The notes beneath the pieces were generated by a model. The model was not told the DNA's origin. It saw only the letters and a list, made by a program, of their open reading frames with translations, and made no database searches. Shown one piece after another: positions 12,665 through 61,477 of a stretch of 64,000 nucleotides of DNA (position 1 is the stretch's first letter; every line of letters starts with the position of its first letter). Where the stretch lies: positions 1,559-65,558 of IMG/VR virus record IMGVR_UViG_2909633642_000001; one strand, given 5' to 3'. This DNA is from a virus. Taxonomy: Duplodnaviria > Caudoviricetes. The position numbers and the translations under genes are program-made.

Positions 12665-12676
12665 GACGGGACTGCT

Positions 12677-19355: not shown

Positions 19356-19525
19356 CCCCGTTGCACGTTTTGGCGTTGCTCGAAGCGGGGTTTACCTACT
19401 CGGAAGTTCGACAGATGACCCACCGAATCGCCCGGTTTTGGTGGGGACATATTCAGCAACTTGATCAGCTAAAACACCGCGCTATCGAAAAGGCAAAAAA
19501 CAAGGCGAGACCCAAGCGTGGCTAG
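19343..19525 (+). CDS. gpE'-like extension in the -1 frame (programmed frameshift candidate)
   Basis: -1 frame from the G-run at 19343-19347 reads GGILTPLHVLALLEAGFTYSEVRQMTHRIARFWW...KRG*, resembling chaperone extensions. Confidence 0.65.
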   Translation, partial: GGILTPLHVLALLEAGFTYSEVRQMTHRIARFWWGHIQQLDQLKHRAIEKAKNKARPKRG

Positions 19526-22500
19526 CACTTCCCTCACGATCACGATTAATGCTGTCGATCAAGCTTCTGCCAAGATCGACAGCATTTTGTCTAGGTTGGA
19601 ACGTGCCCAGCGACAGACTGCCAAGGCGACGGATTTGGCGGGCAACGCGGCAAACAATGCAGGCAAGGGGGCAACCCGATTGCAGCGCGGGATGGGGCGA
19701 GCCGCTGACGCAATGGCGGGGTTTGATGCCGCTGCAAACCTGATCGGCAGGCCGGTGATCGGGGCGATTGGTGGGAGCCTTCAGGCGTTCCAAGAATTTG
19801 AAGACGCGATGGCCGCCGTTCGGAAGACGACGGGATTGAGCAGCAAAGAGACGGCGGTGTTGGGTGACGAGATCAAGGCGATGTCGCGCACCATCCCAAT
19901 CTCCCAAAAGGGGTTAGCCGACATCGCTGAATCAGCCGGGTCGCTGGGCATCGCTCGGGATGACATCGGTAAGTTCGTGGACACCACGGCCAAGATGTCA
20001 ACCGCGTTCGACATCGCACCCAAGGAAACCGCCACTCGACTGGGCAAGCTCTCGAACACGTTCGGGTTCATGAACCAACAGACCGGGCGACTTGATTTTG
20101 CCCGCGTCCAAAAATTTGGCGACATGATCAACTATCTGGGCAACACGTCGGCCGCGACCGAGGTGGAAATCCTGAACGCAACACAGCGGTTTTCAGGTAC
20201 GGCCAAGGCCATGCGGATCACCGAGAACGACGCGGCGGGCTTGACCACCACGATGATCAGCCTTGGGATGGCTCCTGAGTCGGCCGCCACTGGGCTTAAC
20301 TCAATGTTTGCCAGCCTGAACGGATTGAACCGGGCAACACCACGACAGGCGGCGGCCTTGGCGGATTTGGGATTGACCACCCAAGACGTGGCTAAAGCGA
20401 TGGAGGTTAGCCCGGTCAAGGCGTTCGAGTCGATCCTGAGCAAGGCGGGTGACGCGGGATTGAAAGGGCAAGCGGCATTGGTGGGATTGTTCGGGAAAAA
20501 CCACGCGCCGAAAGCTGCCCAGCTTGCCCAGAACATGGACGTGTTGGCGGCCACGATGGCGCGAGCCAACGATGTGACAGCGCAACAGGGCGGGATGCAA
20601 AAAGAATTTGCAGACCGAATCGACACGATGAAGGCGCGCGTGCAACTGGCCCAAAACGCCATGAACGAATTGGCGATCAACGTGGGTGGTGCGCTGGCCC
20701 CAGCGGTCACGTCAGTGTTGGCTCCGATCACGGCAGTGATTCAGGCGATGGCCAGTTTCGCTTCTGCCAATCCTGGCATCACGGCGATGATCGCAACCTT
20801 TGCGGCCTTAAGCGCGGGGATCTTGGTTGTGGTAGCAGCGGTGGGAGCCATTGGAGCCGCACTGGCTGGCATCTCAGTTGGCCCTGTCTTGGCAGTGGCG
20901 GCTGCAATCACGGCAATCGGAGCGGCGGCGATGGCGCTGAGACCCCAACTATCAGCGCTGTTCACAGGGTTCGGGCAAGGCTTCATGGCAGCGTTCGGGC
21001 CGGCACTCGACAACCTCAAGTCCGCATTCTCCCGATTGGGTGAGGCGTTGGCTCCTGCGTTCAACACGATCAAGGCAGCAATCCAATCGGCATTTGGGCC
21101 CGGTGCGCTCTCAGGGATCCAAAACTTTGGGCAGATGATCGGAGCGGCATTAGGCGCGGCGGCTGGGTTTGTGGCCAACTTCGTTGCCAACATCGTGAAC
21201 GCCATCGCAGCGGTCGTTGAGTTCGGGAACGCCATCGCGCAAGCATTCTCGGGGAACTTCGGTGGGCTGGCCAGTATCGGGTCGGGACTGATGAGTGCGA
21301 TCACCGGAGCACTGGCAGGGTTGCCGGGGCTGGTGATGAGCATGATCTCACCCATCCCAGGGTTATTCATGTCCGTGTTCTCGGGACTGGGTGGAATGAT
21401 CTCGGGAGCCTTGGCAGGGTTGCCGGGATTGGTGTCGAGCGCGTTCGCTGCCATCCCGTCCGTGATTGCCGGTGTGTTTGGCCCTATTCCGGGATTGCTC
21501 GCTGGATTGGTGGCATCGTTCGGGTCGGCATTCTCGGGGCTGGGCGGGATGATCACGGCCGGATTGCAGGGGGCGCTCTCGGGTATCGGCTCGTTTGTGC
21601 AGGGCATCCAATCGACGGTGATGAACGTCGTGAACGGCATCAAGTCAGCCTTTGCCAGCCTGTCGGGTGCGATGAATGTCGGTGGCGGCGGTGGCGGTGG
21701 GTTCCTAAGCGGGATGCTCTCGGGTGCTCAATCCATGATTCAGGGGCTAATTTCCAGTCTGTCGAGCATTGGCCCGATGCTGCAATCAGCCTTGACCGCT
21801 CCCCTAATGGCGATTGGCCCGGCGATCACGGGTATCGTGTCACAGGTGATGATGCTCGGGCCGCAACTGGCTGCATCATTCACGACGGCAATGGCGAGCA
21901 TTACGACCGGGATGGCGAGCATCGCCACCAACATCGGCACAATTTTCAGCGGCATCGCCACTTCGATCACGCCTGCCATCGCCCAAATTGGCATGGCTTT
22001 GACGATGGCGTTCACAACTGCATTCGCACAGGTGGGGGCGCAAGTGGCGGCATTCACCGCGCAACTCGGGGCCGCATTCACAGGCATCACGGCACAAGTG
22101 GCCATGTTGGGTTCATCCCTGACGATGGCATTTAGCACCGCGTTCATGGGTGTTCAGATGCAAGTGATGATGCTGTCGGCCACCATGACGATGGCGTTCG
22201 CATCGATCACGGCGCAAGCGACCGCGTTCGGTGCGTCCTTGTCGGCTTCGCTCACGTCCTCAATGGCAGCGGCTCAAGCGGCCATGGCGGCGGCAATCAC
22301 AGGAATCCAGGCGCAATTAGCCCAACTGCCGGCCATCGCGTCGGCAGCCGGTGCTCAGATCGCGGCGGCGTTTCAAGCCATGGCCGGTTCAATGCAGGCG
22401 GCCGGGATGGCGATGATGTCGAATCTAGCGGCGGGCATCACGGCGGGCATCGGTCAAGCGGTGGCGGCCGCATCAGCAGCAGCGGCGGCCGTCCGGGGTG

Positions 22501-22886
22501 CGTTCCCAGGCTCCTACGCAAAATATGGCCCGTTCTCCAAATCCCAGTTTGGGGGAGCCGGGCCGGGGCTGCTGGATGTGTTCACGACGGGACTGCAAAG
22601 GGCGGCGGTCGGATACCAGGGCACGATTGGCGGCGCACTCAATCCGATGGTGGGTGGGATGGGATTACAACCGGCTCCGATGCCGATCGGCCCAATGGCG
22701 ACGGGAGCCACCCAACCGGCAACCTCGCCATCGGCATCCAGCGTGTTTAACTTCTCACCGACCATCAATGTCGGATCGGATGGGGCCGCGGCCGCCGTGG
22801 GTGGCGTGTTGGCCGCGGAACGGGAGAAGTTCTTCGCGATGATTCAGGAATACGAGGCACGAAAGCAGCGATTGAGTTATGGCTAA
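19518..22886 (+). CDS. Tape measure protein (TP901-type N-terminal domain)
   Basis: 1122 aa Ala/Gly-rich; EFEDAMAAVRKTTG, IAE.AG.LGIA motifs. Confidence 0.95.
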   Translation: MASTSLTITINAVDQASAKIDSILSRLERAQRQTAKATDLAGNAANNAGKGATRLQRGMGRAADAMAGFDAAANLIGRPVIGAIGGSLQAFQEFEDAMAAVRKTTGLSSKETAVLGDEIKAMSRTIPISQKGLADIAESAGSLGIARDDIGKFVDTTAKMSTAFDIAPKETATRLGKLSNTFGFMNQQTGRLDFARVQKFGDMINYLGNTSAATEVEILNATQRFSGTAKAMRITENDAAGLTTTMISLGMAPESAATGLNSMFASLNGLNRATPRQAAALADLGLTTQDVAKAMEVSPVKAFESILSKAGDAGLKGQAALVGLFGKNHAPKAAQLAQNMDVLAATMARANDVTAQQGGMQKEFADRIDTMKARVQLAQNAMNELAINVGGALAPAVTSVLAPITAVIQAMASFASANPGITAMIATFAALSAGILVVVAAVGAIGAALAGISVGPVLAVAAAITAIGAAAMALRPQLSALFTGFGQGFMAAFGPALDNLKSAFSRLGEALAPAFNTIKAAIQSAFGPGALSGIQNFGQMIGAALGAAAGFVANFVANIVNAIAAVVEFGNAIAQAFSGNFGGLASIGSGLMSAITGALAGLPGLVMSMISPIPGLFMSVFSGLGGMISGALAGLPGLVSSAFAAIPSVIAGVFGPIPGLLAGLVASFGSAFSGLGGMITAGLQGALSGIGSFVQGIQSTVMNVVNGIKSAFASLSGAMNVGGGGGGGFLSGMLSGAQSMIQGLISSLSSIGPMLQSALTAPLMAIGPAITGIVSQVMMLGPQLAASFTTAMASITTGMASIATNIGTIFSGIATSITPAIAQIGMALTMAFTTAFAQVGAQVAAFTAQLGAAFTGITAQVAMLGSSLTMAFSTAFMGVQMQVMMLSATMTMAFASITAQATAFGASLSASLTSSMAAAQAAMAAAITGIQAQLAQLPAIASAAGAQIAAAFQAMAGSMQAAGMAMMSNLAAGITAGIGQAVAAASAAAAAVRGAFPGSYAKYGPFSKSQFGGAGPGLLDVFTTGLQRAAVGYQGTIGGALNPMVGGMGLQPAPMPIGPMATGATQPATSPSASSVFNFSPTINVGSDGAAAAVGGVLAAEREKFFAMIQEYEARKQRLSYG

Positions 22887-28504: not shown

Positions 28505-28964
28505 GAAATTGGCTCCCATCTCGGAAATTTCCAAAATTTTAGGCAGGTGTCGCTGAAAGCATTGCCCTGTACACATTCCAGCCCCTACCCTTCCATGGGG
28601 GCGTGGGCAGGTCTAAAAATTTTAGGCAGATGGGTAGGCATAAACGAACACCCGAGTCAGTACCCGTATAAATACGGGTATGGGATTAGACCGGCCGACC
28701 TGCTCAAAATTTTGGCATCTGCCCACGACTTGCGAAAACCGTAGAGTCTGAAAGCCTCACCCAGCAAGGGATAGAGACTCCATCTGCCTAAAATTCCAAA
28801 AAAATCCCTTTATACACATTTCCCTGTTTTAGTGGTTACAGATATATATAGGGGCACTGAAAGGTATGTGGGGTAAGGGTTTCAGAGCGTATCCAATGGC
28901 TGTTAATGGGTGGCGATGGGTGGCTATGAGAGCCTAGAATCCTTACGGGATGGTGGATACACCC
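28505..28964 (-). repeat. Repeat element copy A (inverted relative to B and C)
   Basis: 28781-28964 is the near-exact reverse complement of 29125-29305; 28505-28630 matches 29420-29545. Confidence 0.9.
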
Positions 28965-29027
28965 TTGTTTGCCCCTGAGAATTTGTCCTTGGGTGGCATG
29001 GTTGGGGGTGATGATGTCGGTAGTGCC

Positions 29028-29069
29028 GCATCACCCCACCCCATCCCCATGACCCGATACCGCACCTAC
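29028..29069 (+). pseudogene. 5' remnant of the gpX gene
   Basis: CCCCATGACCCGATACCGCACCTAC (25 nt) is identical to the gpX start region (minus strand, 50763-50787), and the upstream leader is near-identical. Confidence 0.8.
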
Positions 29070-29124
29070 CCCTATCGAGTGGGCTGGCCAAGGCTTGAGT
29101 AGAGCTGCTAGACCCACCCAATAG

Positions 29125-29685
29125 GGGTGTATCCACCATCCCGTAAGGATTCTAGGCTCTCATAGCCACCCATCGCCACCCATTAACAGCCATTGGATAC
29201 GCTCTGAAACCCTTACCCCACATACCTTTCAGTGCCCTTATATATATCTGTAACCACTAAAAGAAGGAAATGTGTATAAAGGGATTTTTTTGGAATTTTA
29301 GGCAGGTGTCTCTGTATTCCTTATTGGGTGGGCATTTCAGTCCCTACCCTTTCTAAGAATCTGGAATAGGGCTTGAAATTTTAGGCAGATAAGCAAAACC
29401 TTTCAGGATTATCAGGTTGTCTTATCTGCCTAAAATTTTGGCATCTGCCTATGACCCCATGGAAGGGTAGGGGCTGAAACGTATACAGAGCAATGCTTTC
29501 AGCGACACCTGCCTAAAATTTTGGAAATTTCGCTGATGAGCAAAATCGCCCTTTAAGTGGTTACAGGGTTTTGAACAGAACTCAAAAGGCTTGTGGGGTA
29601 AGGATTCCAGGGCGTATCCAATGGTTGTTAGCGGGTGTCAGTGGGTGGTTGCCAATCCCTGAAACCCTTACGGGATGGTGGATAC
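29125..29685 (+). repeat. Repeat element copy B, ~560 bp, perfect 20-bp TIR, AAATTTTAGGCAG iterons (candidate origin)
   Basis: GTATCCACCATCCCGTAAGG at 29129-29148 and its reverse complement at 29666-29685; AT-rich core; no ORF. Confidence 0.85.
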
Positions 29686-29715
29686 GCACCTGTTGAGGGG
29701 GTCTGGTGAACCCCG

Positions 29716-29760
29716 GTTAACCCACCTCATCCCGACCCAGTGGGCAAGATTGGGAGCATC
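29716..29760 (+). promoter_or_regulatory. Putative late promoter motif upstream of gpJ
   Basis: GTTAACC-N20-GGCAAGATTGGGAGCATC. Confidence 0.6.
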
Positions 29761-29776
29761 CCCACCCATCCCGACC

Positions 29777-30901
29777 ATGGCCCAACCCACCTTCGTCACC
29801 GTTGACCCATCCGCCACCGTTCAGGAGTTGATCGACCGCTTTCAATCCGAGACAGGGCGTACTCTGTTCCCCGGGCAATACGAGCGGCTGCTGATCAACC
29901 TGATTGGCTACCAAGCCCTGTTACTCAAGACCGCGATCCAGGACACAGGGGAGCAAAACCTTGTCGAGTTCGCGAGAGGGGTCAATCTGGAGAACCTAGG
30001 GCGGTTGTTGGGGGTTGAACGTCTACCGGCTCAATCGGCACGCACAACCCTGCTGTTGACCCTGGAATCGACCGCTCCCGTACCGGTCTCGATTCCCGCT
30101 GGTCTGAGGGTAGCGGCCACAGATGGGCCGGTCTTCATCACGACAGCGGCTAGGGTCATCCCCATGGGTGGCTCTACCGCCATCATCCCGTCCGTTGCTG
30201 TCGAGCCGGGCCCCGCTGCTAACGGGTACGCACCCGGCACGGTGATCGAGGTGATCGATCCGTTGCCATCGGGGTTGGGGTACTCGATCACCAATCAGAC
30301 CGCCACGGACGGGGGCGCTGAGATTGAGGATGACGAAAACCTGAGAGAGCGGATCATCCTAGCCCCTGAGAGCTTCAGCAATGCCGGGTCGGTGGGGGCG
30401 TATGAATTTTGGGCGCGGTCGGCTTCGCAGGATGTGATCGACGCAGCCGTGCGGGGGGTGAGTCTGTCTGAGACACCCCTACCAGGGGAGCCAACCCCGG
30501 GTGAGGTCTGGATTTACCCCTTGAGCCGATCGGGACTCCCATCGGAAGAGGTCAAGGCACTGGTGGCCGCGTCGGTGTCTGCGGAACGGGTGAGGCCCTT
30601 GACCGATTGGGTGCAAATCAAAAATCCCGAACGGATACCGTTCGGGATTGAGGTGGCTATTGTGCTGGCGACCGGGGCGGATGCACCCACGGTGCAAGGC
30701 GGTGTCGAGTCGGCGCTGACGGCCTTGGCTGCTGAATGGCGGTCACGGTTGGGCCAGCGAGTGACGGCGAGTCAAATTATCTGTGCTGCTCAGGACGTGC
30801 CGGGTGTGGTCAGCGTCGGACTGGTTTCGCCTGAGTCTGACTTGGTGTTGGATCGGTGGGAATGGGCCGATTGCACGGGGGTGGTGGTGGGAGTGGGTTA
30901 G
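29777..30901 (+). CDS. Baseplate J-like protein
   Basis: GRTL.PGQ.ERLLI, FARG.NLE.LG, GGAEIE.DE.LRERI.LAPE.FS.AGS.GAY.FWA motifs; ATG at 29777. Confidence 0.93.
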   Translation: MAQPTFVTVDPSATVQELIDRFQSETGRTLFPGQYERLLINLIGYQALLLKTAIQDTGEQNLVEFARGVNLENLGRLLGVERLPAQSARTTLLLTLESTAPVPVSIPAGLRVAATDGPVFITTAARVIPMGGSTAIIPSVAVEPGPAANGYAPGTVIEVIDPLPSGLGYSITNQTATDGGAEIEDDENLRERIILAPESFSNAGSVGAYEFWARSASQDVIDAAVRGVSLSETPLPGEPTPGEVWIYPLSRSGLPSEEVKALVAASVSAERVRPLTDWVQIKNPERIPFGIEVAIVLATGADAPTVQGGVESALTALAAEWRSRLGQRVTASQIICAAQDVPGVVSVGLVSPESDLVLDRWEWADCTGVVVGVG

Positions 30902-34084: not shown

Positions 34085-34357
34085 TCCCAACCCCACCCTC
34101 CCAACCGCTCTAAACAGGGCGGTTTTATTTTGCCCGAAAACCCGTGAAACCCTTAAGCGCCAAGGGGTACAGCCCACCCACGCCCAGTCATTCCACCTGT
34201 GTAGTCCCGATCAAAAACCGATCAAGTTTTGACTATTTTCCCCTTGACAGTTTGACTATGGGTGTGTTTATACTCTAAATAAGAAAGCGCCCCGATCCGT
34301 ACCCGAAAGAATCGAATGGGGCGATTGAGTACCAATCTATCGAGTTAGGACACTATA

Positions 34358-35482
34358 ATGCCCGCAAAATCCACCGCCCCCAATCGCACCGCGACCGCCC
34401 CGAGTGGTTCCGTGTTGTCCCAAGACTGGCAAAATCTGACCACTCCCCTCGCTGTCGCCGTTGACATCGGCAATTCCAGCACCATCGGAGCCGCTAACGG
34501 CACTCACCTGCTGATTCCGAGTGCGTTGGTTGGGGCCAACTCCCGCACGGCTATCCCGACCGATCAAGGTTCTGCCCTGCTGCATTACGAAGCTGGCGAC
34601 TCCGTTGAATCCGTCGGTTGCCACTGGCTAGTCGGCAATGTGGCCGTCGCCACCGCTCCTACGTCCCACGCCAAAGTGGTAGACCGCCCAGACGGAAAGC
34701 TGACCTACGCGCTGCCTTTGGTTCTTGCCCAACTGGGTTTGCTGTTCCCTGACGCATCCGAAATCAGCCCCGCCGTCTTGGTCGTGGCCTTGCCCGATGC
34801 GAAAGTGCTAGCGCCCCGGATGCAATCGGTCTTGACCGGCACTCACTTGGTTCGAGTCAATGGCCGTCGGGTCACGATCACCCTGAATCGGGTTGATGTC
34901 ATCGAAGAAGGTCGCGGCGCGTTGCTTCATGCCGTAAACGCTGGAGCGATTGACGCGGCCACCGTGCGCGGCGCAACCGTGACGGTTTTGGACTTGGGTG
35001 GCGGAACCACTCTGGGCAATGCCGTGGTGCGCGGCCAATTCGTTGCCGAATCCCGAATCGTGATCAATCAAGGGGTCTATGCCCTGTGGGGGGCTATCGC
35101 TGCCGATGAAGCGCCTGGAATGATGCGAGACCGGCTAATGAACTTTGGAGACCCGACCGCCGTAGCCCGTTCGTTCGAGCGCGGGATGGTTGGCGGCGGG
35201 ATTCAGTACCTCTCGACCGGGATTGACCTCATGGCTTCGTACCATCGCCACCTTGGACAGTGGGCTAACAACACGATCACCCCGACCCTGAACGCCCTGA
35301 AGCAATGGCGTGATGAATCTGATGTGATTTTGGTGACCGGTGGTGGCGCAATGCTGCCGGGGTTGATTGAGTTGCTGCAATCCCAACCCATATTGGGGGG
35401 CAAGATTCGGCTCTGTCCTCAGCCTCGGATCGCCAATGCCTTGGGCATGGCCGCGTTCGGTCAATCCCAGATCGGAGGTTAG
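34358..35482 (+). CDS. ParM/StbA-family actin-like ATPase
   Basis: Actin motifs VDIGNS, IEEG.GA, LDLGGGTT, VTGGGA, ANALG. Confidence 0.88.
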   Translation: MPAKSTAPNRTATAPSGSVLSQDWQNLTTPLAVAVDIGNSSTIGAANGTHLLIPSALVGANSRTAIPTDQGSALLHYEAGDSVESVGCHWLVGNVAVATAPTSHAKVVDRPDGKLTYALPLVLAQLGLLFPDASEISPAVLVVALPDAKVLAPRMQSVLTGTHLVRVNGRRVTITLNRVDVIEEGRGALLHAVNAGAIDAATVRGATVTVLDLGGGTTLGNAVVRGQFVAESRIVINQGVYALWGAIAADEAPGMMRDRLMNFGDPTAVARSFERGMVGGGIQYLSTGIDLMASYHRHLGQWANNTITPTLNALKQWRDESDVILVTGGGAMLPGLIELLQSQPILGGKIRLCPQPRIANALGMAAFGQSQIGG

Positions 35483-35485
35483 GCC

Positions 35486-35761
35486 ATGTACCCCGATGTT
35501 GCAGGCACTGCCTACCTGGAAACGGCCCGCCATCGGGCCGAAATCCCCAAAAACCTTGTGCCGGTTCTGGCTGCAATCGCGGTCTACCACCGAATCGATC
35601 CAACGGAGAAGGGATGGGAGACGCGGACTGTGGAAGTATTGCTACAAGCTCTTTACTACCAAGGCATTACCCCTGCTCAACTGGCCGGGCTGGTCAAGGG
35701 GCAGAGCCTGCCGTCCCAACCTCGCCAACCCGCGTCTGCTCCCGTCTTGTCTTTGATGTGA
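35486..35761 (+). CDS. Small protein after ParM (ParR-like adaptor candidate)
   Basis: Position only; no clear RHH motif. Confidence 0.45.
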   Translation: MYPDVAGTAYLETARHRAEIPKNLVPVLAAIAVYHRIDPTEKGWETRTVEVLLQALYYQGITPAQLAGLVKGQSLPSQPRQPASAPVLSLM

Positions 35762-35766
35762 TCGTC

Positions 35767-36354
35767 ATGAACCTCAAGCAACTTCTCGAATCTGCTGAAA
35801 TTCCTCACGTTTTCGATGGCAATGTAGCCGTCTGCGGTAAAGCCAAAATTGTCGGAGTCGGTTGCGTCAAGGCATCTAGCCTCAAATGGTGTCGCGAAAT
35901 CTTGGTCAAGGCTGTTGACAATGAGAATCCTGAAAGAGTCGTGGTGTCTGTCGATGGCGGAGTGGATTACCCGAAGGGTGAAGGATTCACCATTAGTCCT
36001 GCCTTGACCCGCCCAGATGACATCAGCTTTGTTGAAAAACTTTGCCTTGCGGTTGGTCGCGTTTCACAGATTGCCGATTGGCCCGTGATCGACCCGCTGC
36101 CCTCCTTTGCCGAGTTGATGGAGCGGCTTGGGTACGAGATCCGGTACGGTAGCGCCCATGTCTCAAGCTCTATCAGCATCTTGGGTGACGAGCGCCCTCG
36201 ATACGTCGTCGTTTCCCTGTCCATTCCTAAAGGGACAGTTGAGCGCACTATCTCGACTCGCGACCCAGACTTTACCAACGTCGTCAAGTCCCAAGTTAAA
36301 TTCTTGAAATCCATTGAAGCCAGGGTGAAAGCCTCATGCTCCGATCCCTCCTAA
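35767..36354 (+). CDS. Hypothetical protein
   Basis: ORF within the operon; likely start ATG 35767. Confidence 0.55.
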   Translation: MNLKQLLESAEIPHVFDGNVAVCGKAKIVGVGCVKASSLKWCREILVKAVDNENPERVVVSVDGGVDYPKGEGFTISPALTRPDDISFVEKLCLAVGRVSQIADWPVIDPLPSFAELMERLGYEIRYGSAHVSSSISILGDERPRYVVVSLSIPKGTVERTISTRDPDFTNVVKSQVKFLKSIEARVKASCSDPS

Positions 36355-36536
36355 ACCGGGGCCGCCCTTTCGATCCCGGTCGCGACTCCGAATCAGTCCT
36401 GACGGTTGACGTTGCGGCCGTCACCGTCACCCCCCAACCGTCCCGACTGACTCGGATCGTCCGCAGAGCATGGGAAGTGTTGATCGACACCCTGGACTGC
36501 ATTGCCCGCTATCCCTATCCCCCTATCGAGATTTGA
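36336..36536 (+). CDS. Small hypothetical protein
   Basis: In-operon ORF. Confidence 0.5.
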   Translation: MLRSLLNRGRPFDPGRDSESVLTVDVAAVTVTPQPSRLTRIVRRAWEVLIDTLDCIARYPYPPIEI

Positions 36537-36539
36537 GCC

Positions 36540-36863
36540 ATGTACACCCAAGACCGAACCGCCCCTGTTCTGCCTGACATCCAACGCCCGACCCATGCTC
36601 CGATCACCGTGACGGTTGAAGTTCCGAACCAATCGCCCGCGCCCCGTCCCGTTCATGCCCCGGTATCCAATTGGCAACGGGCCATGATCATGGTGGCAAT
36701 CGTTTCCACGGTTGGGATGATCGCCGTTCCCGTAGGGGTCACGATTGGGCGAAATATGGCCAGCGCTGAAATTAATCAAGCCAATGGGGCTAAGGTTGCG
36801 GCCGAAAAAGCGCTTGATGCCAACCGCGCTCAGATCGAAAATTTTTGCAAGAGCGTGAAGTAG
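36540..36863 (+). CDS. Single-TM protein with C-terminal coiled coil
   Basis: Hydrophobic AMIMVAIVSTVGMIAVPVGV segment. Confidence 0.7.
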   Translation: MYTQDRTAPVLPDIQRPTHAPITVTVEVPNQSPAPRPVHAPVSNWQRAMIMVAIVSTVGMIAVPVGVTIGRNMASAEINQANGAKVAAEKALDANRAQIENFCKSVK

Positions 36864-36901
36864 TTCCGATCCACCCGTTCATCCCCTATCGAGTTCAGAC
36901 C

Positions 36902-37267
36902 ATGTACACCCAACACCCCACGCCTCAAAACGTCACCTACAAAACGGTGATGGCCCCAAGCACCGAAGCGTTGCCCCGTCGCCTGACGATCCAAGACGCG
37001 CCTAGCTTGCTCGATTCCCTTCTGCCAAAATCCAAGACTGACCTCGCCAGTCGCGTCTTGATCACCTTGGCATCAGGCCATATCTCAGGCTTGCTGCTAC
37101 GACTCTTGCCCGTCAGTCCTGTGGCTATTGCCTTGACCCTGACGGTGATCGTTGTTGCCACCTTGTCCCTGTGGTGCGTGGCCAAGTACGCCCCGCAATC
37201 AAACGCGGTCGTTGCGGCAATCGTGGCCATCTACGGAGTCGGGTTTGTCCTGACTTGGGTGGCTTAG
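36902..37267 (+). CDS. Multi-TM membrane protein
   Basis: About three hydrophobic helices; starts MYTQ like the preceding gene. Confidence 0.7.
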   Translation: MYTQHPTPQNVTYKTVMAPSTEALPRRLTIQDAPSLLDSLLPKSKTDLASRVLITLASGHISGLLLRLLPVSPVAIALTLTVIVVATLSLWCVAKYAPQSNAVVAAIVAIYGVGFVLTWVA

Positions 37268-38974
37268 ATGAGCCTCACTCCCCACGGACGCATCCCGGCC
37301 CTGGCCTCCCTCGCGGTCGGGTCGGCCCTTCTCGCCTCTGGCGTGGCCGCGTCCCATCCCGCCATTCGTTTGTCTTGCGCGGCCGGCTCCCTTGGGGCTG
37401 GTCTCGCTGCCCATGTTTCAGACCGCAAGCGCCGTGAATGGTCTCGCGTGGCCAGCACGATCACCGCCGCTCGATCTGAAACCTTGGCCGCTCAACTGGC
37501 TTACGGCTCACCCAAGACCGAATCCCCTCAATTCACTCCGATTGCCCTCCCTTCGTCGCAACCCGGACTGGCTGGCGAGATCGAGCGGTTCTATGCCGCG
37601 CGGGGCATCCCAGTTGGGACTTCCGAAATGCCACCGGCTCCGGCCTTTCGTCGGGTCGGGCTGGTGTTGGGGCACGACAAATCGGGCAAACCCATCGACC
37701 CCAACCAAATCATGACGGACGCGCTCTTGACCGGGCTGCAATTGGCGCTCGGGTTAGACCGGCAACCGTCCGTCACGATTTCATCGCTCGGGCTGGTGAT
37801 GGAAATTCCCAGACCCGACCGGGAAGTTTTCCGCTATGCCGAAATGGCGTTCACCCGTCCCGATGGAGTTAGCCCTCATTGGCTCTTTGGGGTCGGGATG
37901 GATGGGACTCCGATCACCGCACCCTTAACCGAAGTGGTCGGCTCGATCACGGCCGGTGCATCCGGGTCGGGCAAGACCAGTATCGACACATCGGCCATGG
38001 CCTACCTCTGTGAGACCTACTCGCCTGATGAGGTTGAAATCTGGCTGGCTGATTTCCAGGGCGGCGCATCGTTTGAGTTGGATATTGACCAGATCCCGCA
38101 CGTCACCCGCCCGATGGTGCAAGACCCGGTGGATTTGGTGGCGGCCATCGCTGAATTTGCCGCTGAATCGGATCGCCGGTTGGCGCTGTTCAATGCCAAT
38201 GGGGTCAAGTCTTGGGTGGAGTACCGTGCGAAGTTCCCCGCTGAACGGATGCCCTACTTGATCCTCTGGATTGAAGAGGCGTTCTCCTACCTGCAATCTG
38301 AGGTTGGAAAGGCACTGGCCAATGAGCTGTCGGCTCTCGCGTCTCGCGTCCGCAAGACCGGGCTGATGTTGCACTTAGTGATTCAGTCGCCATCCAAAGT
38401 TGTCTTGCCCGATGGGTTCTCTGCCCTACGCGACAATCTCCCCACCCGTCACGTTGGTCGGATGGAATCGGCCCTTGGCCGTGCCGTGATCGGTGAATCG
38501 ACAATGCCCACGATGTCATTGTTGGGCAAGGGCGATTCCCTTCTGCAATGCCCTGCAATCTCCGGCGTGGTTCGTGTGCAAGGGTTGCTGGTCAGTCCTG
38601 ACGACCGTGACCCGATCACCGCTCGGATCGTGACGAAGTGGGGTGAGCGCTCCAATCCCGTGACGGAATCGTTCAACCGCGCCCTGACGGTTAAGCCTGA
38701 GCCGTTGGCGACTGACCTGCTGCCAACGGAACTAGCCACCCAACCCACGATCACCTCAGCAGAGCGGGCCCGCGTTCTATCGGCATGGCGACTGATTCAG
38801 CCCGACCGCAAGCCGTCCTTGGAAAAGTTGGTGAAATCGGTTTGGGATGTATCGAAGGGTGGTGGCACATCGGGCAAAAATGCGGCCTACCCCGCCGCCT
38901 GCGATAAGGCCGTGCGAATCCTGAAGGATGCCAACCCCAAAGGATGGAACCCACCCAAGCATTGGAACCGCTGA
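37268..38974 (+). CDS. FtsK/SpoIIIE-family DNA translocase-like ATPase (TraB/TcpA-like)
   Basis: N-terminal hydrophobic hairpin; GASGSGKT Walker A, D..GG..F, ILWIEEA Walker B, RK.G..L....Q.P, LLGKGD.L. Confidence 0.9.
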   Translation: MSLTPHGRIPALASLAVGSALLASGVAASHPAIRLSCAAGSLGAGLAAHVSDRKRREWSRVASTITAARSETLAAQLAYGSPKTESPQFTPIALPSSQPGLAGEIERFYAARGIPVGTSEMPPAPAFRRVGLVLGHDKSGKPIDPNQIMTDALLTGLQLALGLDRQPSVTISSLGLVMEIPRPDREVFRYAEMAFTRPDGVSPHWLFGVGMDGTPITAPLTEVVGSITAGASGSGKTSIDTSAMAYLCETYSPDEVEIWLADFQGGASFELDIDQIPHVTRPMVQDPVDLVAAIAEFAAESDRRLALFNANGVKSWVEYRAKFPAERMPYLILWIEEAFSYLQSEVGKALANELSALASRVRKTGLMLHLVIQSPSKVVLPDGFSALRDNLPTRHVGRMESALGRAVIGESTMPTMSLLGKGDSLLQCPAISGVVRVQGLLVSPDDRDPITARIVTKWGERSNPVTESFNRALTVKPEPLATDLLPTELATQPTITSAERARVLSAWRLIQPDRKPSLEKLVKSVWDVSKGGGTSGKNAAYPAACDKAVRILKDANPKGWNPPKHWNR

Positions 38975-39312
38975 TGAATCCCCTACATTCCCATTCCCGC
39001 GCGTACAAGTCCTACATCCTGTCGTCTGATTGGTACGCCCGCCGTCGCGCCGTCCTGAAGATTTGGCGCAATCGGTGCGCCCTGTTCCCCTGGCTGAAGG
39101 CAGAAGAATGCCATCATTTAACGTACCGAAATCTCACCCGCGAAATGCCGTGGCGTGACTGCCTACCGCTCTCAAAGGCGGCCCACCGGCTGGTGCATCA
39201 TCCGATCTTTTGGCAATCTCGCAAGCCTCACTCGATCCGCCGCCGTGGCTTCAACCTACTGTGGAGGGGCTGGAGTCTGGTCACTTGGGTGATAGTCCGA
39301 GTGTTGCGATGA
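38974..39312 (+). CDS. HNH-like endonuclease
   Basis: YI.S..W...R..VL.....C......CHH.TY.......D..PL...AH..VH. Confidence 0.75.
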   Translation: MNPLHSHSRAYKSYILSSDWYARRRAVLKIWRNRCALFPWLKAEECHHLTYRNLTREMPWRDCLPLSKAAHRLVHHPIFWQSRKPHSIRRRGFNLLWRGWSLVTWVIVRVLR

Positions 39313-39475
39313 ACATACTTTGAGTCTGTTCGACTAACCGCTCTCGAAAGGGTGCGGTTTTATTTTGAATAAGCCTGTGATGATAGTTGAGATATGATAT
39401 GAAAACAACGAACCCGCTGGGTACTGGAAATACCACAGCGGGTTCTGTCCACGGAATCCTGATAGAGAGGAACCC

Positions 39476-41627: not shown

Positions 41628-41846
41628 TCCCCACCGGGCCGCCATGCCCGGTTTCAATTCACCCATGTCCAACACATCCCGCCCGCGAGCATAAAAAAAG
41701 GGAGGGGTTTTGCCCCTCCCGCGCCAGAGCGCAGTCTATTGTCTTGTCTATGATTTCCGCTAACAGCGTAACACTATTCAAACTACAACCGCAAGGATAT
41801 TTGAGATAAAATTTTAGGCAGTTAAAAACGGGCCCGCACAGCCCGC

Positions 41847-48574: not shown

Positions 48575-49144
48575 CTATCCCCAATCGATTTGCTCATCAC
48601 GGGCTTCGGCGGCGGATGGCTCCGATGGGTTGAAGTCGATGCGTGGGGCCCTGATGGTCACGTTCTCCCCAGCGATCATCACCGTCCCCTCAGACCGGAT
48701 CGACACGTGAGCGCCATCGCCCTTGACCGTCAGGGACAGGTGGTGTGACTCGGAATCGTAGACCACGGCTGATCCATCGGGGAACACCACGTAATGTTTG
48801 TGCCCATCGGTCTTATCCCCTGTCGGCTTGATCGCGTCCGGCTCCTGTGGCGGCGGCTCTGCCTCAGTCCAGAGCGCACCCAACCAGACACCACGCTCAC
48901 CCGCTTCATCGATAGCGGCCGCTCCGAATGTGCCGATCGATGGCAGCGCGTATGATTGGCGACGGTCGGCCCCCTGTCCAGTCACGAGGCATGGCAGCCA
49001 GGGCGAAACGACACCATCTCTATCGGCTTGGGTGATCCGCACACGGCAAAGTTTGGGGTCGATCTCACTCACCACGCCATAGGCCAGTGTGGTGCGACCG
49101 GCTTCAGGACTGGCTGCTCTCTGCTGGGTTTTGGTCTTAGGCAC
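48575..49144 (-). CDS. Baseplate spike, P2 gpV-like
   Basis: G.V..ID....RVR....D..S.WL......Y.LP.IG....G..LG..W...F.DG..V.YD. Confidence 0.92.
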   Translation of the reverse strand: MPKTKTQQRAASPEAGRTTLAYGVVSEIDPKLCRVRITQADRDGVVSPWLPCLVTGQGADRRQSYALPSIGTFGAAAIDEAGERGVWLGALWTEAEPPPQEPDAIKPTGDKTDGHKHYVVFPDGSAVVYDSESHHLSLTVKGDGAHVSIRSEGTVMIAGENVTIRAPRIDFNPSEPSAAEARDEQIDWG

Positions 49145-49263
49145 TTGACAGATCGGGTAGGGGATGCCACCATCTTAGCTGTACCCCTTGGCGGGGGTTG
49201 CACAGCACCCGTAAGGCGTTATCGCATCCATCCCTCAGATTGCCGTTAGGCGTTAAATATTCC

Positions 49264-49299
49264 GAACCGCGTCCCGCTCTCTCCAGTGGGACGCGGTTC
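49264..49299. other. Perfect 12-bp GC-rich hairpin
   Basis: GAACCGCGTCCC-N12-GGGACGCGGTTC. Confidence 0.85.
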
Positions 49300-49321
49300 T
49301 GCTTTGGGCTATCATGTCAAC

Positions 49322-49424
49322 AGCACGGTAGAGCAGCCAGGTAGCTCGTGAGACCCATAGCCCCGTATAGTGAACAACTTTAGGGTAGGGCCGCAAGGCG
49401 ATGGTTCGATTCCATCCCGTGCCA
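49322..49424 (+). ncRNA. Initiator-tRNA-like RNA with elongated anticodon arm
   Basis: Acceptor (A)GCACGG/CCGTGC(C)+A; D arm GAGC-AGCCAGGTA-GCTC; T arm GATGG-TTCGATT-CCATC; CAT at canonical 34-36; about 29 nt longer than a normal tRNA. Confidence 0.75.
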
Positions 49425-49428
49425 TTCA

Positions 49429-50571
49429 TTACCCATCCGTATCGAACCGTCCAGCATCCAACGGCTTGGCCCCTGACCCCAACCGTCGCTCGCATCGAAA
49501 GTTAGTCTTCCATCCCGAACGCCCCTCAACTGAATGGCGGCATTCCTGGATCAGGTAGTTGCCCGACAACCTGCCAACACCCAACAACTCAAACATCACA
49601 CCCGCCTGAATCCGAGGATCGCCAATCACGTCAATTTGCCACTCGACTTCATTGGCATTGGCCCGCCGTAGTTTTTCCTTCGCGACCCGCTTGGCCTCAT
49701 CATCAGACCCGACCGGCTCCGAAATTTTGAGTACGTTGGCGGTCTTCTTCTCCCCTTCAGGCGGTTTGGACTTGTCGGGCTTGGCCGTATCCCCCTCAGA
49801 CGGCTCCGATTTCTCCCCGCTCACCTCAGACGCTTTCACCGTCGCCCTGAATGTCTTGCCCGATTGCGGGTCGGTGTAGGTCAACTCTGCTGAATCGTAT
49901 TTCTCAGTGCTGGTGCGTTTCCAAGTGGCGTTGGTCAACTCGGATCGGTTAAGGGTGAATGCGGCCGGCTGGGAATCCAGATCCTCCAAATCCCAGAAGA
50001 CAATGAATTTCGCGTCCTGAACCTTCATGATCAGCCCATGCTTCTCTGAAATCCGTTTCAGAAATTCCAGGGGCGTTTCATCCTTCTGCGATACCCGATC
50101 AATCACCACGGGCTTGACCTTGCCTTTCAGCTCCAATCCCGTGCGCTTGGCCACGTCAGCGGCAATTTTGTCGAGCGTGGTCTTTTCGTATTCCTTCGAT
50201 CCTTTGGTATTGGCCGGTTGGGTGATCGGCGTGGATTTGCAGGACAGCCTTAAGGACTCCCCTGATGTGGCCGATATCGTGCCAGTCGGCTCATCCAACT
50301 CGTACCGCGTGACCGGCAGGGAGCCTCCGCCCTCGTAGCCAATGGAGCACTCCAGGGAAGCACCCAAGGGCGGGAACCAATCATTCAGGAATCGCCCCGC
50401 CACCAACCATGCGTCCGGGTCGTAGAGGTCAACGTCTAGCGTGTCTGACTCACCTTCTACCGATGCGCTGACTTCCAGGCGGGTGCATAGCGCTGCAATG
50501 TCTTCGGTGATGTCGCGGCCTTGCATCACCAGCTTGAACCAGACTTTGGGGGCTAGGGAGTCTACAGCCAT
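49429..50571 (-). CDS. Baseplate hub / late control D-like protein
   Basis: G.DIT..I......GESD.L...L.D, K....EK.TL..IA..VA...GL, Q..ET.LEFL.RI, G.YLI...RH. Confidence 0.92.
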   Translation of the reverse strand: MAVDSLAPKVWFKLVMQGRDITEDIAALCTRLEVSASVEGESDTLDVDLYDPDAWLVAGRFLNDWFPPLGASLECSIGYEGGGSLPVTRYELDEPTGTISATSGESLRLSCKSTPITQPANTKGSKEYEKTTLDKIAADVAKRTGLELKGKVKPVVIDRVSQKDETPLEFLKRISEKHGLIMKVQDAKFIVFWDLEDLDSQPAAFTLNRSELTNATWKRTSTEKYDSAELTYTDPQSGKTFRATVKASEVSGEKSEPSEGDTAKPDKSKPPEGEKKTANVLKISEPVGSDDEAKRVAKEKLRRANANEVEWQIDVIGDPRIQAGVMFELLGVGRLSGNYLIQECRHSVEGRSGWKTNFRCERRLGSGAKPLDAGRFDTDG

Positions 50572-50783
50572 GGCGGTTTGATCGAAGTCGTTACGGGTTC
50601 GGGTTCGGGTAACTCAGGGATGATCAGGGTCAGTCCCCTTGGAAGGATCGCCGGGGGCAATGGCAGCAGCGACGGGTTGGCCCGCGCCAACACATGAAGC
50701 CGATCGGATGACCCATAGGCCGCATGGGCGATTAGGTCAAGCCGATCACCGTCTCGGGTGGTGTAGGTGCGGTATCGGGTCAT
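50562..50783 (-). CDS. Tail protein X (LysM-like)
   Basis: Y.T..GDRLD.IA..AYG......L..ANP.......P.G..L.IP; ATG at 50783. Confidence 0.9.
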   Translation of the reverse strand: MTRYRTYTTRDGDRLDLIAHAAYGSSDRLHVLARANPSLLPLPPAILPRGLTLIIPELPEPEPVTTSIKPPWL

Positions 50784-50800
50784 GGGGGTGGGGGTGGGGT

Positions 50801-50844
50801 GATGCTCCCATCGTGCCATCGGGGGATGGATCGCGCGGGTTAAC
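50801..50844 (-). promoter_or_regulatory. Putative late promoter motif upstream of gpX
   Basis: GTTAACC-N20-GGCACGATGGGAGCATC on the minus strand. Confidence 0.6.
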
Positions 50845-50953
50845 CGTGCGTCCGGTTTCGCTTGTGAGCTGACGTATTATTTAAAAGCGAAGCCGCCTAG
50901 GAATCGGAAGTTCCCAAGCGGCAATGATTCAGCCCGTAGGAGGGGCGTGAACC

Positions 50954-51541
50954 ATGTTTACTATACCTTTCGGTTGTCGAGAAATCCGGGCAATTGACGC
51001 GCCCGATGGGACTTGGTTCGTTGCTAAAGATGTGTGTGCGGCTCTAGGGCTGGACAACACGTCTCAGTCCTTGTCTCGACTAGAGAAATGGATGAAGGGC
51101 AAAGAGCGCGTTGCTGGCATTGCGGGGGGCCCTCAAAAAACCAATGTCATCAACACCGCCGGACTCAAGAAGCTGATCACCACCAGCCGCAGCCCCAAAG
51201 CCCAAGACCTTGCCTATGCGCTTGGGATCGACGTGGCTTATGCCCCACCCAAGGAAGCTGAGTGCATTCGCATCATCGCGGCCGCGCTAGCCGATCAAAC
51301 GCCCATTCACCAATTCCCCATCCTCTCCTACCGGATTGATCTGTATTTCCCGCGCGGTCGGGTGGCTGTGGAGTGCGACGAAAACGGACACCGGGGCAAG
51401 CACCGCGCGGATGCGGTTCGTCAGCGGGAAATCACCGAAGCGCTGCACTGCTCATTCATCCGATTCAACCCCGATGCTCATGACTTCAACGTTGGGCGGG
51501 TAATTCACGACATTCGAGAGGCGCTGTTCTTCCCGTACTAA
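50954..51541 (+). CDS. BRO-N plus DUF559-like endonuclease domain protein
   Basis: WFVAKDVC.ALG N-terminus; YRIDLYF....VAVECDE.GH....D..RQ..I...L.C.FIRFNPD. Confidence 0.85.
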   Translation: MFTIPFGCREIRAIDAPDGTWFVAKDVCAALGLDNTSQSLSRLEKWMKGKERVAGIAGGPQKTNVINTAGLKKLITTSRSPKAQDLAYALGIDVAYAPPKEAECIRIIAAALADQTPIHQFPILSYRIDLYFPRGRVAVECDENGHRGKHRADAVRQREITEALHCSFIRFNPDAHDFNVGRVIHDIREALFFPY

Positions 51542-51563
51542 ACCCCACAATCGACAGGCACAG

Positions 51564-51590
51564 GCCAGCTCATCACGGGCTGGCTTTTTT
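51564..51590 (+). terminator. Intrinsic terminator
   Basis: GCCAGC/GCTGGC stem followed by T6. Confidence 0.7.
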
Positions 51591-51745
51591 GTGGCCAGAC
51601 CCTGCGAGATTTGCAGGTAATACCGAGGGGCGATGTCGGTAATACCGAGGTCATCACCCCCCTACTCTGCCACCCAAGACCGAATCATCAGGGTTAACCC
51701 GACCCCAAACCCTCATAAATCCGTTCGAGGCAGAGGGGTAAACAA

Positions 51746-52305
51746 GGGTGTATCCACCATCCCATAAGGATTCTAGGCTCTCATAGCCACCCATCGCCAC
51801 CCATTAACAACCATTGGATACGCTCTGAAACCCTTACCCCACATACCTTTCAGTGCCCCTATATATATCTGTAACCACTAAAAGAAGGAAATGCGTATAA
51901 AGGGATTTTTTTGGAATTTTGGGCAGGTGTCTCTGTATTCCTTATTGGGTGGGCATTTCAGCCTCTACCCTTCCTAAGAATCTGGAATAGGGCTTGAAAT
52001 TTTAGGCAGATAAGCAAAACCTTTCAGGATTATCAGTTTGTCTTATCTGCCTAAAATTTTGGCATCTGCCTATGACCCCATGGAAAGGTAGGGGCTGGAA
52101 TGTATGTAGGGCAAGAGTTTCAGCGACACCTGCCTAAAATTTTGGAAATTTTGCTGATGAGCCAAATCGACCCTCAAGTGGTTACAGACTCTTGAACGAA
52201 ACCCAAAAGTCTTGTGGGGTAAGGGCTTGAGACTGTACCTGTCGCCTGTTGCCCTGCATTGTCGATGGCTATAAAAAGCTGAAAGTACCGCCACTCCGTT
52301 GATAC
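51746..52305 (+). repeat. Repeat element copy C (direct repeat of B)
   Basis: 51746-52224 aligns with 29125-29610 with scattered substitutions; right TIR degenerate. Confidence 0.9.
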
Positions 52306-52402
52306 ACCCCTGTTGGGCGGCAAAAATTAGCGGCCATCGTCGTTAACCGTCACCCCATTGGGACTGGTGCGATGGTGAGGGGGTTGGCTCATCCGTCACC
52401 CC

Positions 52403-52837
52403 ATGCCGATCATCGCCACGCCATCCACGCCCTACCCTGCGATTACCGCCCAATACCAATCGGCTCGGTTGCAGCGGTTGGGCAATGCCACCAACCAAGG
52501 CGACACCCTTGGCCAAGTCCTGACGGATTTGGATGAGTTAGCCCAAAGCATCCGAATCATCCTGACCACGCCCAAAGGGAGTGACCCGTTGCGTCCCGAG
52601 TTCGCGACGGATATTTACCGACTGATTGACCGCCCGTTGGCAGAAGTGCGGTTGTTGCTGGTGAGGGAATGCGTGAACGCGCTCCGAAACTTTGAACCCA
52701 GGATTTCCCTTGATCGGGTGGAAATCCTGGGTTCGATTGACCGGGCCGATATCCCGGTTGATTCGGTCTATGCGGTTGTCCACTGGTCGCCAGTAAATTC
52801 ATCTATCAGTGCGGCCACGGCAGTGTCCCTGGCATAA
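52403..52837 (+). CDS. Baseplate wedge protein, GPW/gp25 family
   Basis: L.QSI.IIL.TP.GSDPLRPEF..........V.AL..FEPRI.L..V. Confidence 0.92.
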   Translation: MPIIATPSTPYPAITAQYQSARLQRLGNATNQGDTLGQVLTDLDELAQSIRIILTTPKGSDPLRPEFATDIYRLIDRPLAEVRLLLVRECVNALRNFEPRISLDRVEILGSIDRADIPVDSVYAVVHWSPVNSSISAATAVSLA

Positions 52838-61353: not shown

Positions 61354-61477
61354 GATGCTCAAAAAATGCTCAATCAGCATCAGGATATCCCCAAATATCC
61401 ACAAGTTACGACAGGAAAGTGGAGGGGTTAAATTCCTGAAAGCCCTTGAAATCATTGGCTTTGGGTGGATGAGAGCG

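Follow-up and report, generated by a model that had tools for sequence, protein, structure and literature searches.

Gene content and conservation of the operon

The DNA analysed here (the window) is a stretch of 64,000 nucleotides corresponding to bases 1559-65558 of the 65,558-bp IMG/VR record IMGVR_UViG_2909633642_000001. In the early region of the prophage that it carries, we examined an operon at 34358-39312, in which a ParM/Alp-type actin-like ATPase (ALP) is accompanied by a candidate adaptor of 91 amino acids (aa), small soluble and membrane proteins, a membrane-anchored FtsK-type ATPase (the ATPase, below) and a basic HNH-like protein (Table 1). An earlier note on this DNA had listed a co-oriented ParM-like ATPase, a small partner, transmembrane proteins, an anchored FtsK/SpoIIIE ATPase and an HNH nuclease; all of these were found on the + strand, the HNH call being a weak one. 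Our reading, offered tentatively, is that the operon may be a self-contained phage module which places and moves the phage's own double-stranded DNA (dsDNA) inside the host cell.

By its layout, the region forms one + strand transcription unit, with a promoter-like site of its own and a terminator-like hairpin on either flank. Within the operon, the consensus scan that located these hairpins found no internal terminator-like hairpin on the + strand. Furthermore, the genes of the unit abut or overlap, and co-expression is implied because stop and start codons overlap or abut.

Close relatives were rare, with only four ATPase and seven ALP protein clusters among 5.8 billion. An exhaustive profile search with the ATPase against 1.84 billion representatives returned only P0002, a fragment and P0007, which is 33% identical, is encoded on a 2-kb contig and was the sole additional full-length relative; below these came generic FtsK domains. 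Scans of genome contigs and metagenomes with profiles of the ATPase family gave nothing useful, and the operon DNA had no similarity match in the phage collection.

In the relatives, the order of seven genes was constant: ALP, the ~91-aa protein, the ~66-aa protein, the single-span and multi-span membrane proteins, the ATPase and the HNH-like protein. This order was observed in five contexts, namely locus L007 (ATPase 94% identical), the partial contig of P0003 (78%), and loci L008, L009 and that of P0004 (59-61%), and other genes had been gained and lost within the operon from one relative to another. When compared with L007, six of the seven core genes had ratios of nonsynonymous to synonymous substitution (pN/pS) of 0.04-0.18. 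It was concluded that the seven genes are under purifying selection and are a conserved unit of this phage lineage; a lack of co-conservation, which would have refuted the idea of the earlier note, was not what we saw.

Table 1. Positions of the features of the operon, of the surrounding prophage and of the related Nostocales loci (window coordinates unless a genome is named).
Feature	Position	Strand	Basis or remark
ParM/Alp-type actin-like ATPase (ALP), 374 aa	34358..35482	+	Pfam, PHROG, PDB matches
Candidate ParR/AlpA-like adaptor, 91 aa	35486..35761	+	Position, size, pattern
Open reading frame (ORF), 195 aa	35767..36354	+	Variable insert outside the core module
Conserved soluble protein, 66 aa	36336..36536	+	
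Single-span membrane protein, 107 aa	36540..36863	+	Hydropathy
Membrane protein, 121 aa	36902..37267	+	Hydropathy
Membrane-anchored FtsK-type ATPase, 568 aa	37268..38974	+	PF01580, predicted fold
Basic HNH-like protein, ~112 aa	38974..39312	+	Weak HNH match
Terminator-like hairpin + T run	34103..34124	+	Consensus scan; kept in L007; ends upstream early genes, left edge of unit
Promoter-like region with short direct repeats	34207..34274	+	
Terminator-like hairpin	39339..39354	+	Consensus scan; right edge of unit
Portal	484-2184		PHROG/Pfam
Head protease, scaffold, major head protein	11256-13669		PHROG/Pfam
Sheath	15429-17495		PHROG/Pfam
Tape measure	19518-22886		PHROG/Pfam
Baseplate J	29675-30901		PHROG/Pfam
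gpD	49429-50571	-	PHROG/Pfam
gp25	52403-52837		PHROG/Pfam
Methyltransferase + helicase	56911-59291		PHROG/Pfam
Tyrosine integrase	60265-61506	-	PHROG/Pfam
Host GAF/PAS/cyclase gene	61478-64000	-	Adjoins integrase
Nostocales FtsK-like locus L101	G147:C1:2897000-2916900		
Nostocales FtsK-like locus L102			
Nostocales FtsK-like locus L103			
Nostocales FtsK-like locus L104	Nostoc linckia NIES-25 plasmid2 127479-146816		

The membrane-anchored ATPase

The N-terminus of the ATPase consists of two hydrophobic helices in the AlphaFold2 model, and of one to two spans according to hydropathy. After this anchor, the chain is predicted to continue with a long helix, an alpha domain (residues ~100-180), a RecA-like beta motor (~200-465) and a helical C-terminal domain (~485-560). 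The Pfam model PF01580 (FtsK_SpoIIIE) was matched with an E-value of 1.6e-13 (51 bits versus a cut-off of 24). When compared with the sequences of the PDB, the ATPase matched FtsK (9e-17), EccC (1.7e-9) and TcpA (9.5e-8). Against NCBIfam the matches were to FtsK (9e-14), to EssC and EccC (~1e-10) and to TraB (2.6e-8), all of them far under the family cut-offs (50.1 bits versus 1566 for chromosomal FtsK, NF007615; 32.9 bits versus 800 for Streptomyces TraB, NF041214).

The AlphaFold2 model was built from an alignment of 82 rows and had a mean predicted local distance difference test score (pLDDT) of 86.7. Searching with this model by Foldseek retrieved FtsK (4e-21), TcpA (2e-15) and EssC/EccC (5e-12). 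Superposition by VIA-align on Escherichia coli FtsK gave a Z score of 32.4 and a root-mean-square deviation (rmsd) of 2.5 A over 350 residues, covering residues 99-466 of the model, that is, the alpha and beta domains. The corresponding Z scores were 27.0 for EccC, 26.2 for TcpA and 18 for HerA-type proteins. By sequence and predicted fold, the ATPase is thus a dsDNA-translocase-type FtsK alpha-beta motor. Comparison with the TraB, TcpA and EccC clades had been called for in the earlier note; by hidden Markov models and by structure the nearest class was FtsK, and the ATPase did not group with secretion or defence ATPases.

Motifs of the motor were aligned to those of Pseudomonas aeruginosa FtsK (PaFtsK), for which residue roles were taken from bioRxiv 10.1101/2022.01.03.474797. 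Walker A (GSGKTS at 233), the arginine finger R362 (PaFtsK R620) and the sensor glutamine Q373 are kept, and the pN/pS of the gene was 0.10 against L007. As a side observation, the 78% relative P0003, on a 4-kb contig of GCA_037931745.1, has a Cys at the arginine finger and an Arg in the 'GSG' stretch of Walker A; this gene may be a decaying copy or may contain sequencing errors.

Other assignments of the ATPase were considered and set aside. Type VII secretion proteins of the EccC/EssC kind have three tandem motor domains, versus a single one in the 568 aa of the ATPase, and their matches (E 1e-10) cover one domain. A packaging ATPase was ruled out by the FtsK alpha domain, by the membrane anchor and by the place of the gene in the early region, away from the portal and head genes. 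The C-terminal domain was not supported as a canonical FtsK gamma domain (hhalign E 0.24), and the VIA rows barely cover it. Finally, membership in a defence system found no support, as the PADLOC matches of the ATPase to SspH and mad8 were confined to their generic FtsK domain and the other operon genes matched nothing.

The actin-like ATPase and its putative adaptor

ALP was recognized by the Pfam model ALP_N (E 1.1e-9; 39.1 bits versus a cut-off of 26.3) and, over its full length (residues 33-371), by PHROG 691, 'partition protein' (E 4e-18). In the PDB, it matched ParM (3js6, E 4.7e-6) and Anabaena CorM (9rmi, E 0.002). The NCBIfam equivalog of ParM, NF010498, was matched with an E-value of 3.9e-11 and 42.8 bits, below its cut-off of 417. 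As judged from these matches, ALP is a distant relative of R1 ParM and not its orthologue. The three nucleotide-binding motifs, phosphate-1 (DIGNSS at 36), phosphate-2 (DLGGGTT at 212) and adenosine (TGGGA at 327), are intact, and they are also kept in L008. The pN/pS was 0.13 against L007, and no match to ALP was detected by tblastn in the phage collection.

The 91-aa protein had no Pfam, PHROG or usable Atlas match. It begins with a strand of the pattern R-H-R-A-E-I-P, continues with helices and a Pro-rich linker, and ends with a conserved VLSL peptide. Its identity to the counterparts in L007, L008 and L009 is 49-99%, with a pN/pS of 0.04. In cyanobacteria, ParM-like genes 25-34% identical to ALP were present in 20 of 400 sampled genomes, often in several copies and on small contigs. 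In the loci that were read, a gene of 70-107 aa lies directly downstream of the ParM-like gene, and these partners have an N-terminal strand of the pattern R-x-(S/R)-(I/L) and an acidic or hydrophobic C-terminal peptide. The 91-aa gene corresponds to them in place and size. From place, size and pattern, we infer that the 91-aa protein is a candidate adaptor of the ParR/AlpA kind.

For six such cyanobacterial loci with a ParM-like gene and a small partner (L106-L111, in genomes G297, G062, G287, G161, G005 and G083), of which a genome has several copies, a role in plasmid partition is presumed.

The control region

The promoter-like region contains a -35 element (TTGACA, 34244-34249) and a -10 element (TATACT, 34269-34274), together with two pairs of direct repeats: CCGATCAA, at 34207 and 34218, and TTTGACTAT, at 34228 and 34251. 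Three exact copies of TTTGACTAT were found in the window versus 0.19 expected. In L007, the repeat block is essentially invariant and its flanks are variable; in L008, other short repeats, of the CGGGTT type, occupy the equivalent place. These repeats are a candidate operator or centromere to which the 91-aa protein might bind.

Two further repeat families were observed in the window. The cassette TTGACATTCCGATG occurs in eight exact or near-exact copies, four per strand, between 25560 and 43107 (0.75 expected). Each copy constitutes a strong promoter-like site for divergent early genes, and the cassette is not used by the ALP-FtsK operon. The 13-mer AAATTTTAGGCAG occurs in 14 copies when up to two mismatches are allowed (1.15 expected). 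These copies lie at 28534-29521, 41809-41821 and 51914-52142. Three clusters are made up of direct pairs, spaced 83 bp apart, which are opposed by inverted pairs, and one lone copy stands upstream of the ORF at 41847. The AAATTTTAGGCAG copies are candidate origin or partition sites.

The small proteins and the HNH-like protein

The 66-aa protein is 53-89% identical in L007, L008 and L009, with a pN/pS of 0.53 that is based on only 12 substitutions; like the 195-aa ORF, it does not figure in the earlier note. The 107-aa protein has its span at residues ~47-71 and a helical C-terminal tail; it is 40-94% identical in the relatives (pN/pS 0.15). The 121-aa protein has two to three spans in its C-terminal half and ends directly before the start codon of the ATPase. 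Its own start agrees with the gene call on the NCBI contig, and it is 42-94% identical in the relatives (pN/pS 0.18). The 195-aa ORF that interrupts the series is missing from L007, and in L008 and L009 an unrelated gene is found instead at another position. This ORF, which looks like a moron-like insertion, had no family match in Pfam, PHROG, PADLOC, NCBIfam and further scans.

The likeliest start of the HNH-like ORF is at 38974, where TGATG overlaps the stop codon of the ATPase, an arrangement of translational coupling. The protein weakly matched PHROG 22514, annotated HNH (E 1.5e-3), and had no Pfam match. By its Atlas features it scored 0.95 against viral clusters in which HNH PF01844 is present in part of the members (44% in the first cluster). 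An HH...N...H pattern is conserved, but the two Cys expected as zinc ligands are not kept in L008. With 22 Lys and Arg versus 7 Asp and Glu, the protein is very basic, and its C-terminus is hydrophobic and Trp-rich. It is 52-96% identical in L007, L008 and L009 (pN/pS 0.10). The HNH character of this protein is only a lead.

The coupling of these two genes could mean that the motor feeds DNA to the HNH-like protein at the membrane, following the logic of HerA-NurA, and that the pair, expressed from the prophage, degrades either incoming DNA, for superinfection exclusion, or the DNA of the host, for takeover. The basic protein with its hydrophobic tail would suit such a function, the FtsK-HerA fold class to which the motor belongs includes defence ATPases, and a promoter-like site without TTGACATTCCGATG bounded by terminator-like hairpins gives the operon a moron-like layout. 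We nevertheless regard a translocase-nuclease as clearly unlikely. HerA-type matches are far weaker than those to FtsK (Z 18 versus 32), the PADLOC matches do not extend beyond the generic FtsK domain of SspH and mad8, the HNH assignment is weak, in particular in view of the zinc-binding Cys missing in L008, and the ParM-like pair would be left unexplained.

The C-terminal domain and the cyanobacterial mobile elements

The C-terminal domain of the ATPase matched the C-termini of the FtsK-like proteins of phage CrV-01T and of a Nostocales family (hhalign E 4e-5). CrV-01T is a virus of Cylindrospermopsis raciborskii, and the locus concerned is MH636380.1, 41065-45504. Its gp053, which bears the annotation 'cell division protein FtsK', is preceded by gp049, gp050 and gp052, all small membrane proteins, with a Cro/CI-type gene just upstream, and the locus is without an ALP. 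A literature search returned nothing on FtsK in Cylindrospermopsis phages.

The Nostocales proteins, of 650-750 aa, combine an alpha domain, a motor and the same C-terminal domain. Plasmids and chromosomal islands carry their genes, and the genera concerned are almost exclusively heterocystous and filamentous; in genome G147 two copies are present. The gene belongs to a conserved operon whose other products are an M23 peptidase and several unknown proteins, and this operon may be an undescribed DNA-transfer apparatus.

In a FastTree phylogeny of motor domains, the phage family forms a single long branch that joins the FtsK-like groups of cyanobacteria. Local support for this placement was only 80% and a long-branch warning applied, so that it is suggestive only. 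The ATPase can be assigned to an FtsK-like branch of cyanobacterial mobile elements (phages, plasmids and islands) with a C-terminal domain of its own.

The prophage and its host

The IMG/VR record is classed as a provirus with an estimated completeness of 80%, and the same DNA is found on a 244-kb contig of NCBI assembly GCA_014696485.1. PHROG and Pfam scans identified the window as a tailed prophage of the myovirus type. Genes of Limnothrix redekei and Limnothrix sp. BL-A-16 share 99% identity with the host gene adjoining the integrase, and for this reason the host is taken to be a Limnothrix. This genus comprises filamentous, non-heterocystous cyanobacteria, and the filamentous host that the earlier note had given as an example is therefore borne out. 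The ATPase family was not found in the three related Limnothrix genomes checked, which is a weak negative.

The start of the integrase and the 3' end of the host GAF/PAS/adenylate-cyclase gene have ~29 nt in common (61478-61506). This overlap suggests integration into the 3' end of that gene, the last codons being supplied by the phage. The baseplate genes fall into two groups: baseplate J (29675-30901) stands ahead of the ~17-kb early region, and those for gpV-like, gpD and gp25 proteins (48575-52837) follow that region, partly on the opposite strand. Since the 61% relative has the same layout, the split is a feature of the lineage and not an assembly error.

With a filamentous host, a membrane-anchored motor of the dsDNA-translocase type and small membrane partners, one may imagine a spread without virions, in the manner of Streptomyces TraB/Spd: excised phage DNA would be brought to the septum by ParM-like filaments, and the motor would pump it into the adjacent cell of the Limnothrix trichome. 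The C-terminal domain is held in common with the FtsK-like genes of filamentous Cylindrospermopsis phages and of Nostocales elements, where it occurs beside an M23 peptidoglycan hydrolase, and TcpA of the conjugative plasmid pCW3 was the second-best structural class by Foldseek. Such spread appears to us very improbable. The phage possesses a full set of virion genes and an integrase, the TraB model gave 32.9 bits versus its cut-off of 800, and we know of no relaxase-free transfer described in cyanobacteria. A scan for 8-mer over-representation and strand skew returned only composition and coding-strand effects, and no convincing motif resembling clt or KOPS (FtsK-orienting polar sequences), in a setting where the target motif is not known. 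As few lineages were sampled, their phylogeny alone may account for the link to filamentous hosts. Furthermore, FtsK-like genes were found in 227 phage records, mostly from unicellular hosts (among them Bacillus, Mycobacterium, Listeria and Staphylococcus), and because of these the presence of an FtsK-like gene does not imply spread along a filament. Thus the gene identities given in the earlier note, the co-conservation and the filamentous host stand; a specific affinity to TraB/Spd was not seen, FtsK being nearest by sequence and fold, and TraB-like spread does not follow.

Comparison with known systems

The operon was compared with systems of known function. The closest working model is the CGP3 prophage of Corynebacterium glutamicum, in which AlpC, AlpA and their promoter sites are needed for efficient replication after induction (PMC4446434). 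Like AlpAC, the operon combines an actin-like ATPase with a small co-transcribed protein, here a putative adaptor; both systems belong to the early region of a prophage that is integrated, and the promoter region of the operon has candidate sites for adaptor binding. As differences, ALP matches ParM-type models, and in CGP3 neither an FtsK-like motor nor membrane proteins nor an HNH-like gene is linked to the pair. From the actin-like partition pair the earlier note had drawn an episomal phase with active partition; for such a pair in an integrating prophage, CGP3 is a published precedent with a different role.

With the ParMRC systems of R1, of the cyanobacterial plasmid loci and of Anabaena (CorMR, bioRxiv 10.1101/2025.06.27.661541), the operon has in common ALP_N with the actin motifs, upstream repeats, and a small downstream gene whose product has R-x-(S/E)-I-P at its N-terminus and a conserved peptide at its other end. 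It differs from them by its location in an integrating phage rather than a plasmid, and by having only two pairs of short repeats.

The FtsK proteins of E. coli and P. aeruginosa (PDB 2ius, 2iuu and 6t8b) resemble the ATPase in their superposable alpha and beta domains, Walker A, Gln, Arg finger and N-terminal anchor. However, the ATPase has only 568 aa, two membrane helices instead of four, and another helical C-terminal domain. Streptomyces TraB/Spd likewise comprises a single-domain, anchored FtsK-like motor with an extra C-terminal domain, encoded next to small membrane proteins by a mobile element whose host is filamentous, but the TraB match is weaker than those to FtsK or EssC/EccC and the element studied here is a complete tailed phage. 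TcpA of Clostridium perfringens pCW3 (PDB 6o1w-6o1z), an FtsK-like motor of conjugation, fits the model less well (rmsd 6.6 A), and the other Tcp genes are not present in the phage.

FtsK-like accessory motors are also encoded by CrV-01T (gp053), Cr-LKS4, the Nostocales family, the Mycobacterium phage Omega cluster, Bacillus phages and phage 0305phi8-36; in CrV-01T, small membrane proteins lie just upstream as in the operon. These motors are only 24-29% identical to the ATPase, and among the loci examined, none has a ParM-like pair or an HNH-like gene. The role of the phage FtsK-like genes was stated to be unknown or untested (PMC3335513, PMC4113786). In Bacillus phage 0305phi8-36, the 'DNA translocation operon' comprises a relaxase, a translocase and membrane anchors (PMC4113786). 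No description was found of a ParMR/AlpAC-type system and a phage FtsK-like module in one operon.

The occurrence of FtsK-like genes in strictly lytic, large Bacillus phages, where a role in partition or lysogeny is unlikely, raises the idea of an aid to genome entry, in which a membrane motor made early would pull the rest of the infecting genome through the envelope. A membrane-anchored dsDNA motor in the early region would fit this idea. Nonetheless, the operon lies in the genome's middle part behind its own promoter, not at a known first-entering end, and the ParMR-like pair would have no explanation; we consider that this role can hardly be expected.

The same comparison lends itself to a second explanation, namely that two unrelated accessory modules, a ParMR-like pair serving a plasmid-like or replicative phase and an FtsK-like gene with its membrane partners, an accessory such as many other phages have and possibly dispensable, lie side by side without functional coupling. 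In favour of this, the FtsK-like gene of CrV-01T follows three small membrane proteins in a locus with no ALP, the 227 phage records have FtsK-like genes whereas ALP is unmatched in the phage collection, and the cyanobacterial ParM-like genes have their small partner with no FtsK nearby. In addition, deletion of the translocation operon of 0305phi8-36 caused no detectable growth defect (PMC4113786). Against this stand the single promoter-like site, the abutting or overlapping genes with no internal terminator-like hairpin found on the + strand, and the retention of all seven genes at 59-61% identity in spite of gene turnover inside the operon. On balance, mere juxtaposition seems to us rather unlikely.

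Proposed role

The proposal that the operon places and moves phage DNA inside the host cell is made because CGP3 AlpAC is the closest working model, to which a membrane DNA pump and its partners have been added here. First, the 91-aa protein, acting as ParR or AlpA, would bind the short repeats of the promoter and tie the phage DNA to growing actin-like filaments. The filaments would then bring copies of the phage genome to the cytoplasmic membrane or the division septum, or hold them there. At this place, a hexamer of the FtsK-like ATPase, anchored by its own two helices with perhaps some help from the 107-aa and 121-aa proteins, would translocate the DNA. In this way, replicating or transiently episomal phage genomes could be kept from being trapped or lost during cell division in the trichome. 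At the site of translocation, DNA might be nicked or cut by the coupled HNH-like protein.

Several observations weigh against this proposal. In the motor, Walker B is E336-E337 and not D-E, and in all family members the DNA-gripping Arg of loop II (PaFtsK R632) and its partner (D599) are replaced by S374 and S340; the kept and the altered motifs are alike in the 33% relative. In the ATPase a canonical gamma domain was not detected, and no Pfam match to FtsK_4TM or FtsK_gamma was obtained. Concerning the adaptor, the alignment of the 91-aa protein with the partners of the cyanobacterial ParM-like genes was not significant (hhalign 0.058), and the promoter has no more than two pairs of repeats, whereas R1 parC has ten iterons. 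Co-conservation was found only within one narrow phage lineage and the linkage could be historical; because the lineage is narrow, shared ancestry explains part of the synteny. Furthermore, a prophage does not need a partition system while it is integrated, and the 'DNA translocation operon' of 0305phi8-36 could be deleted without growth defect (PMC4113786).

Significance

CGP3 AlpAC is one published functional example of a phage-encoded actin-like system (PMC4446434). In the operon described here, an actin-like system, a phage FtsK-like motor and membrane proteins are linked both physically and evolutionarily. This provides a defined seven-gene unit for studying the use that a phage makes of a membrane DNA pump, in a host group that is culturable, as the contig comes from an NCBI genome assembly. 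In phage phi29, replication is organised at the membrane with the host MreB. If the module does organise phage DNA at the membrane, the picture drawn from AlpAC and phi29 would be extended to cyanobacteria; if DNA were moved between cells, phages would have a new route by which they are transmitted.

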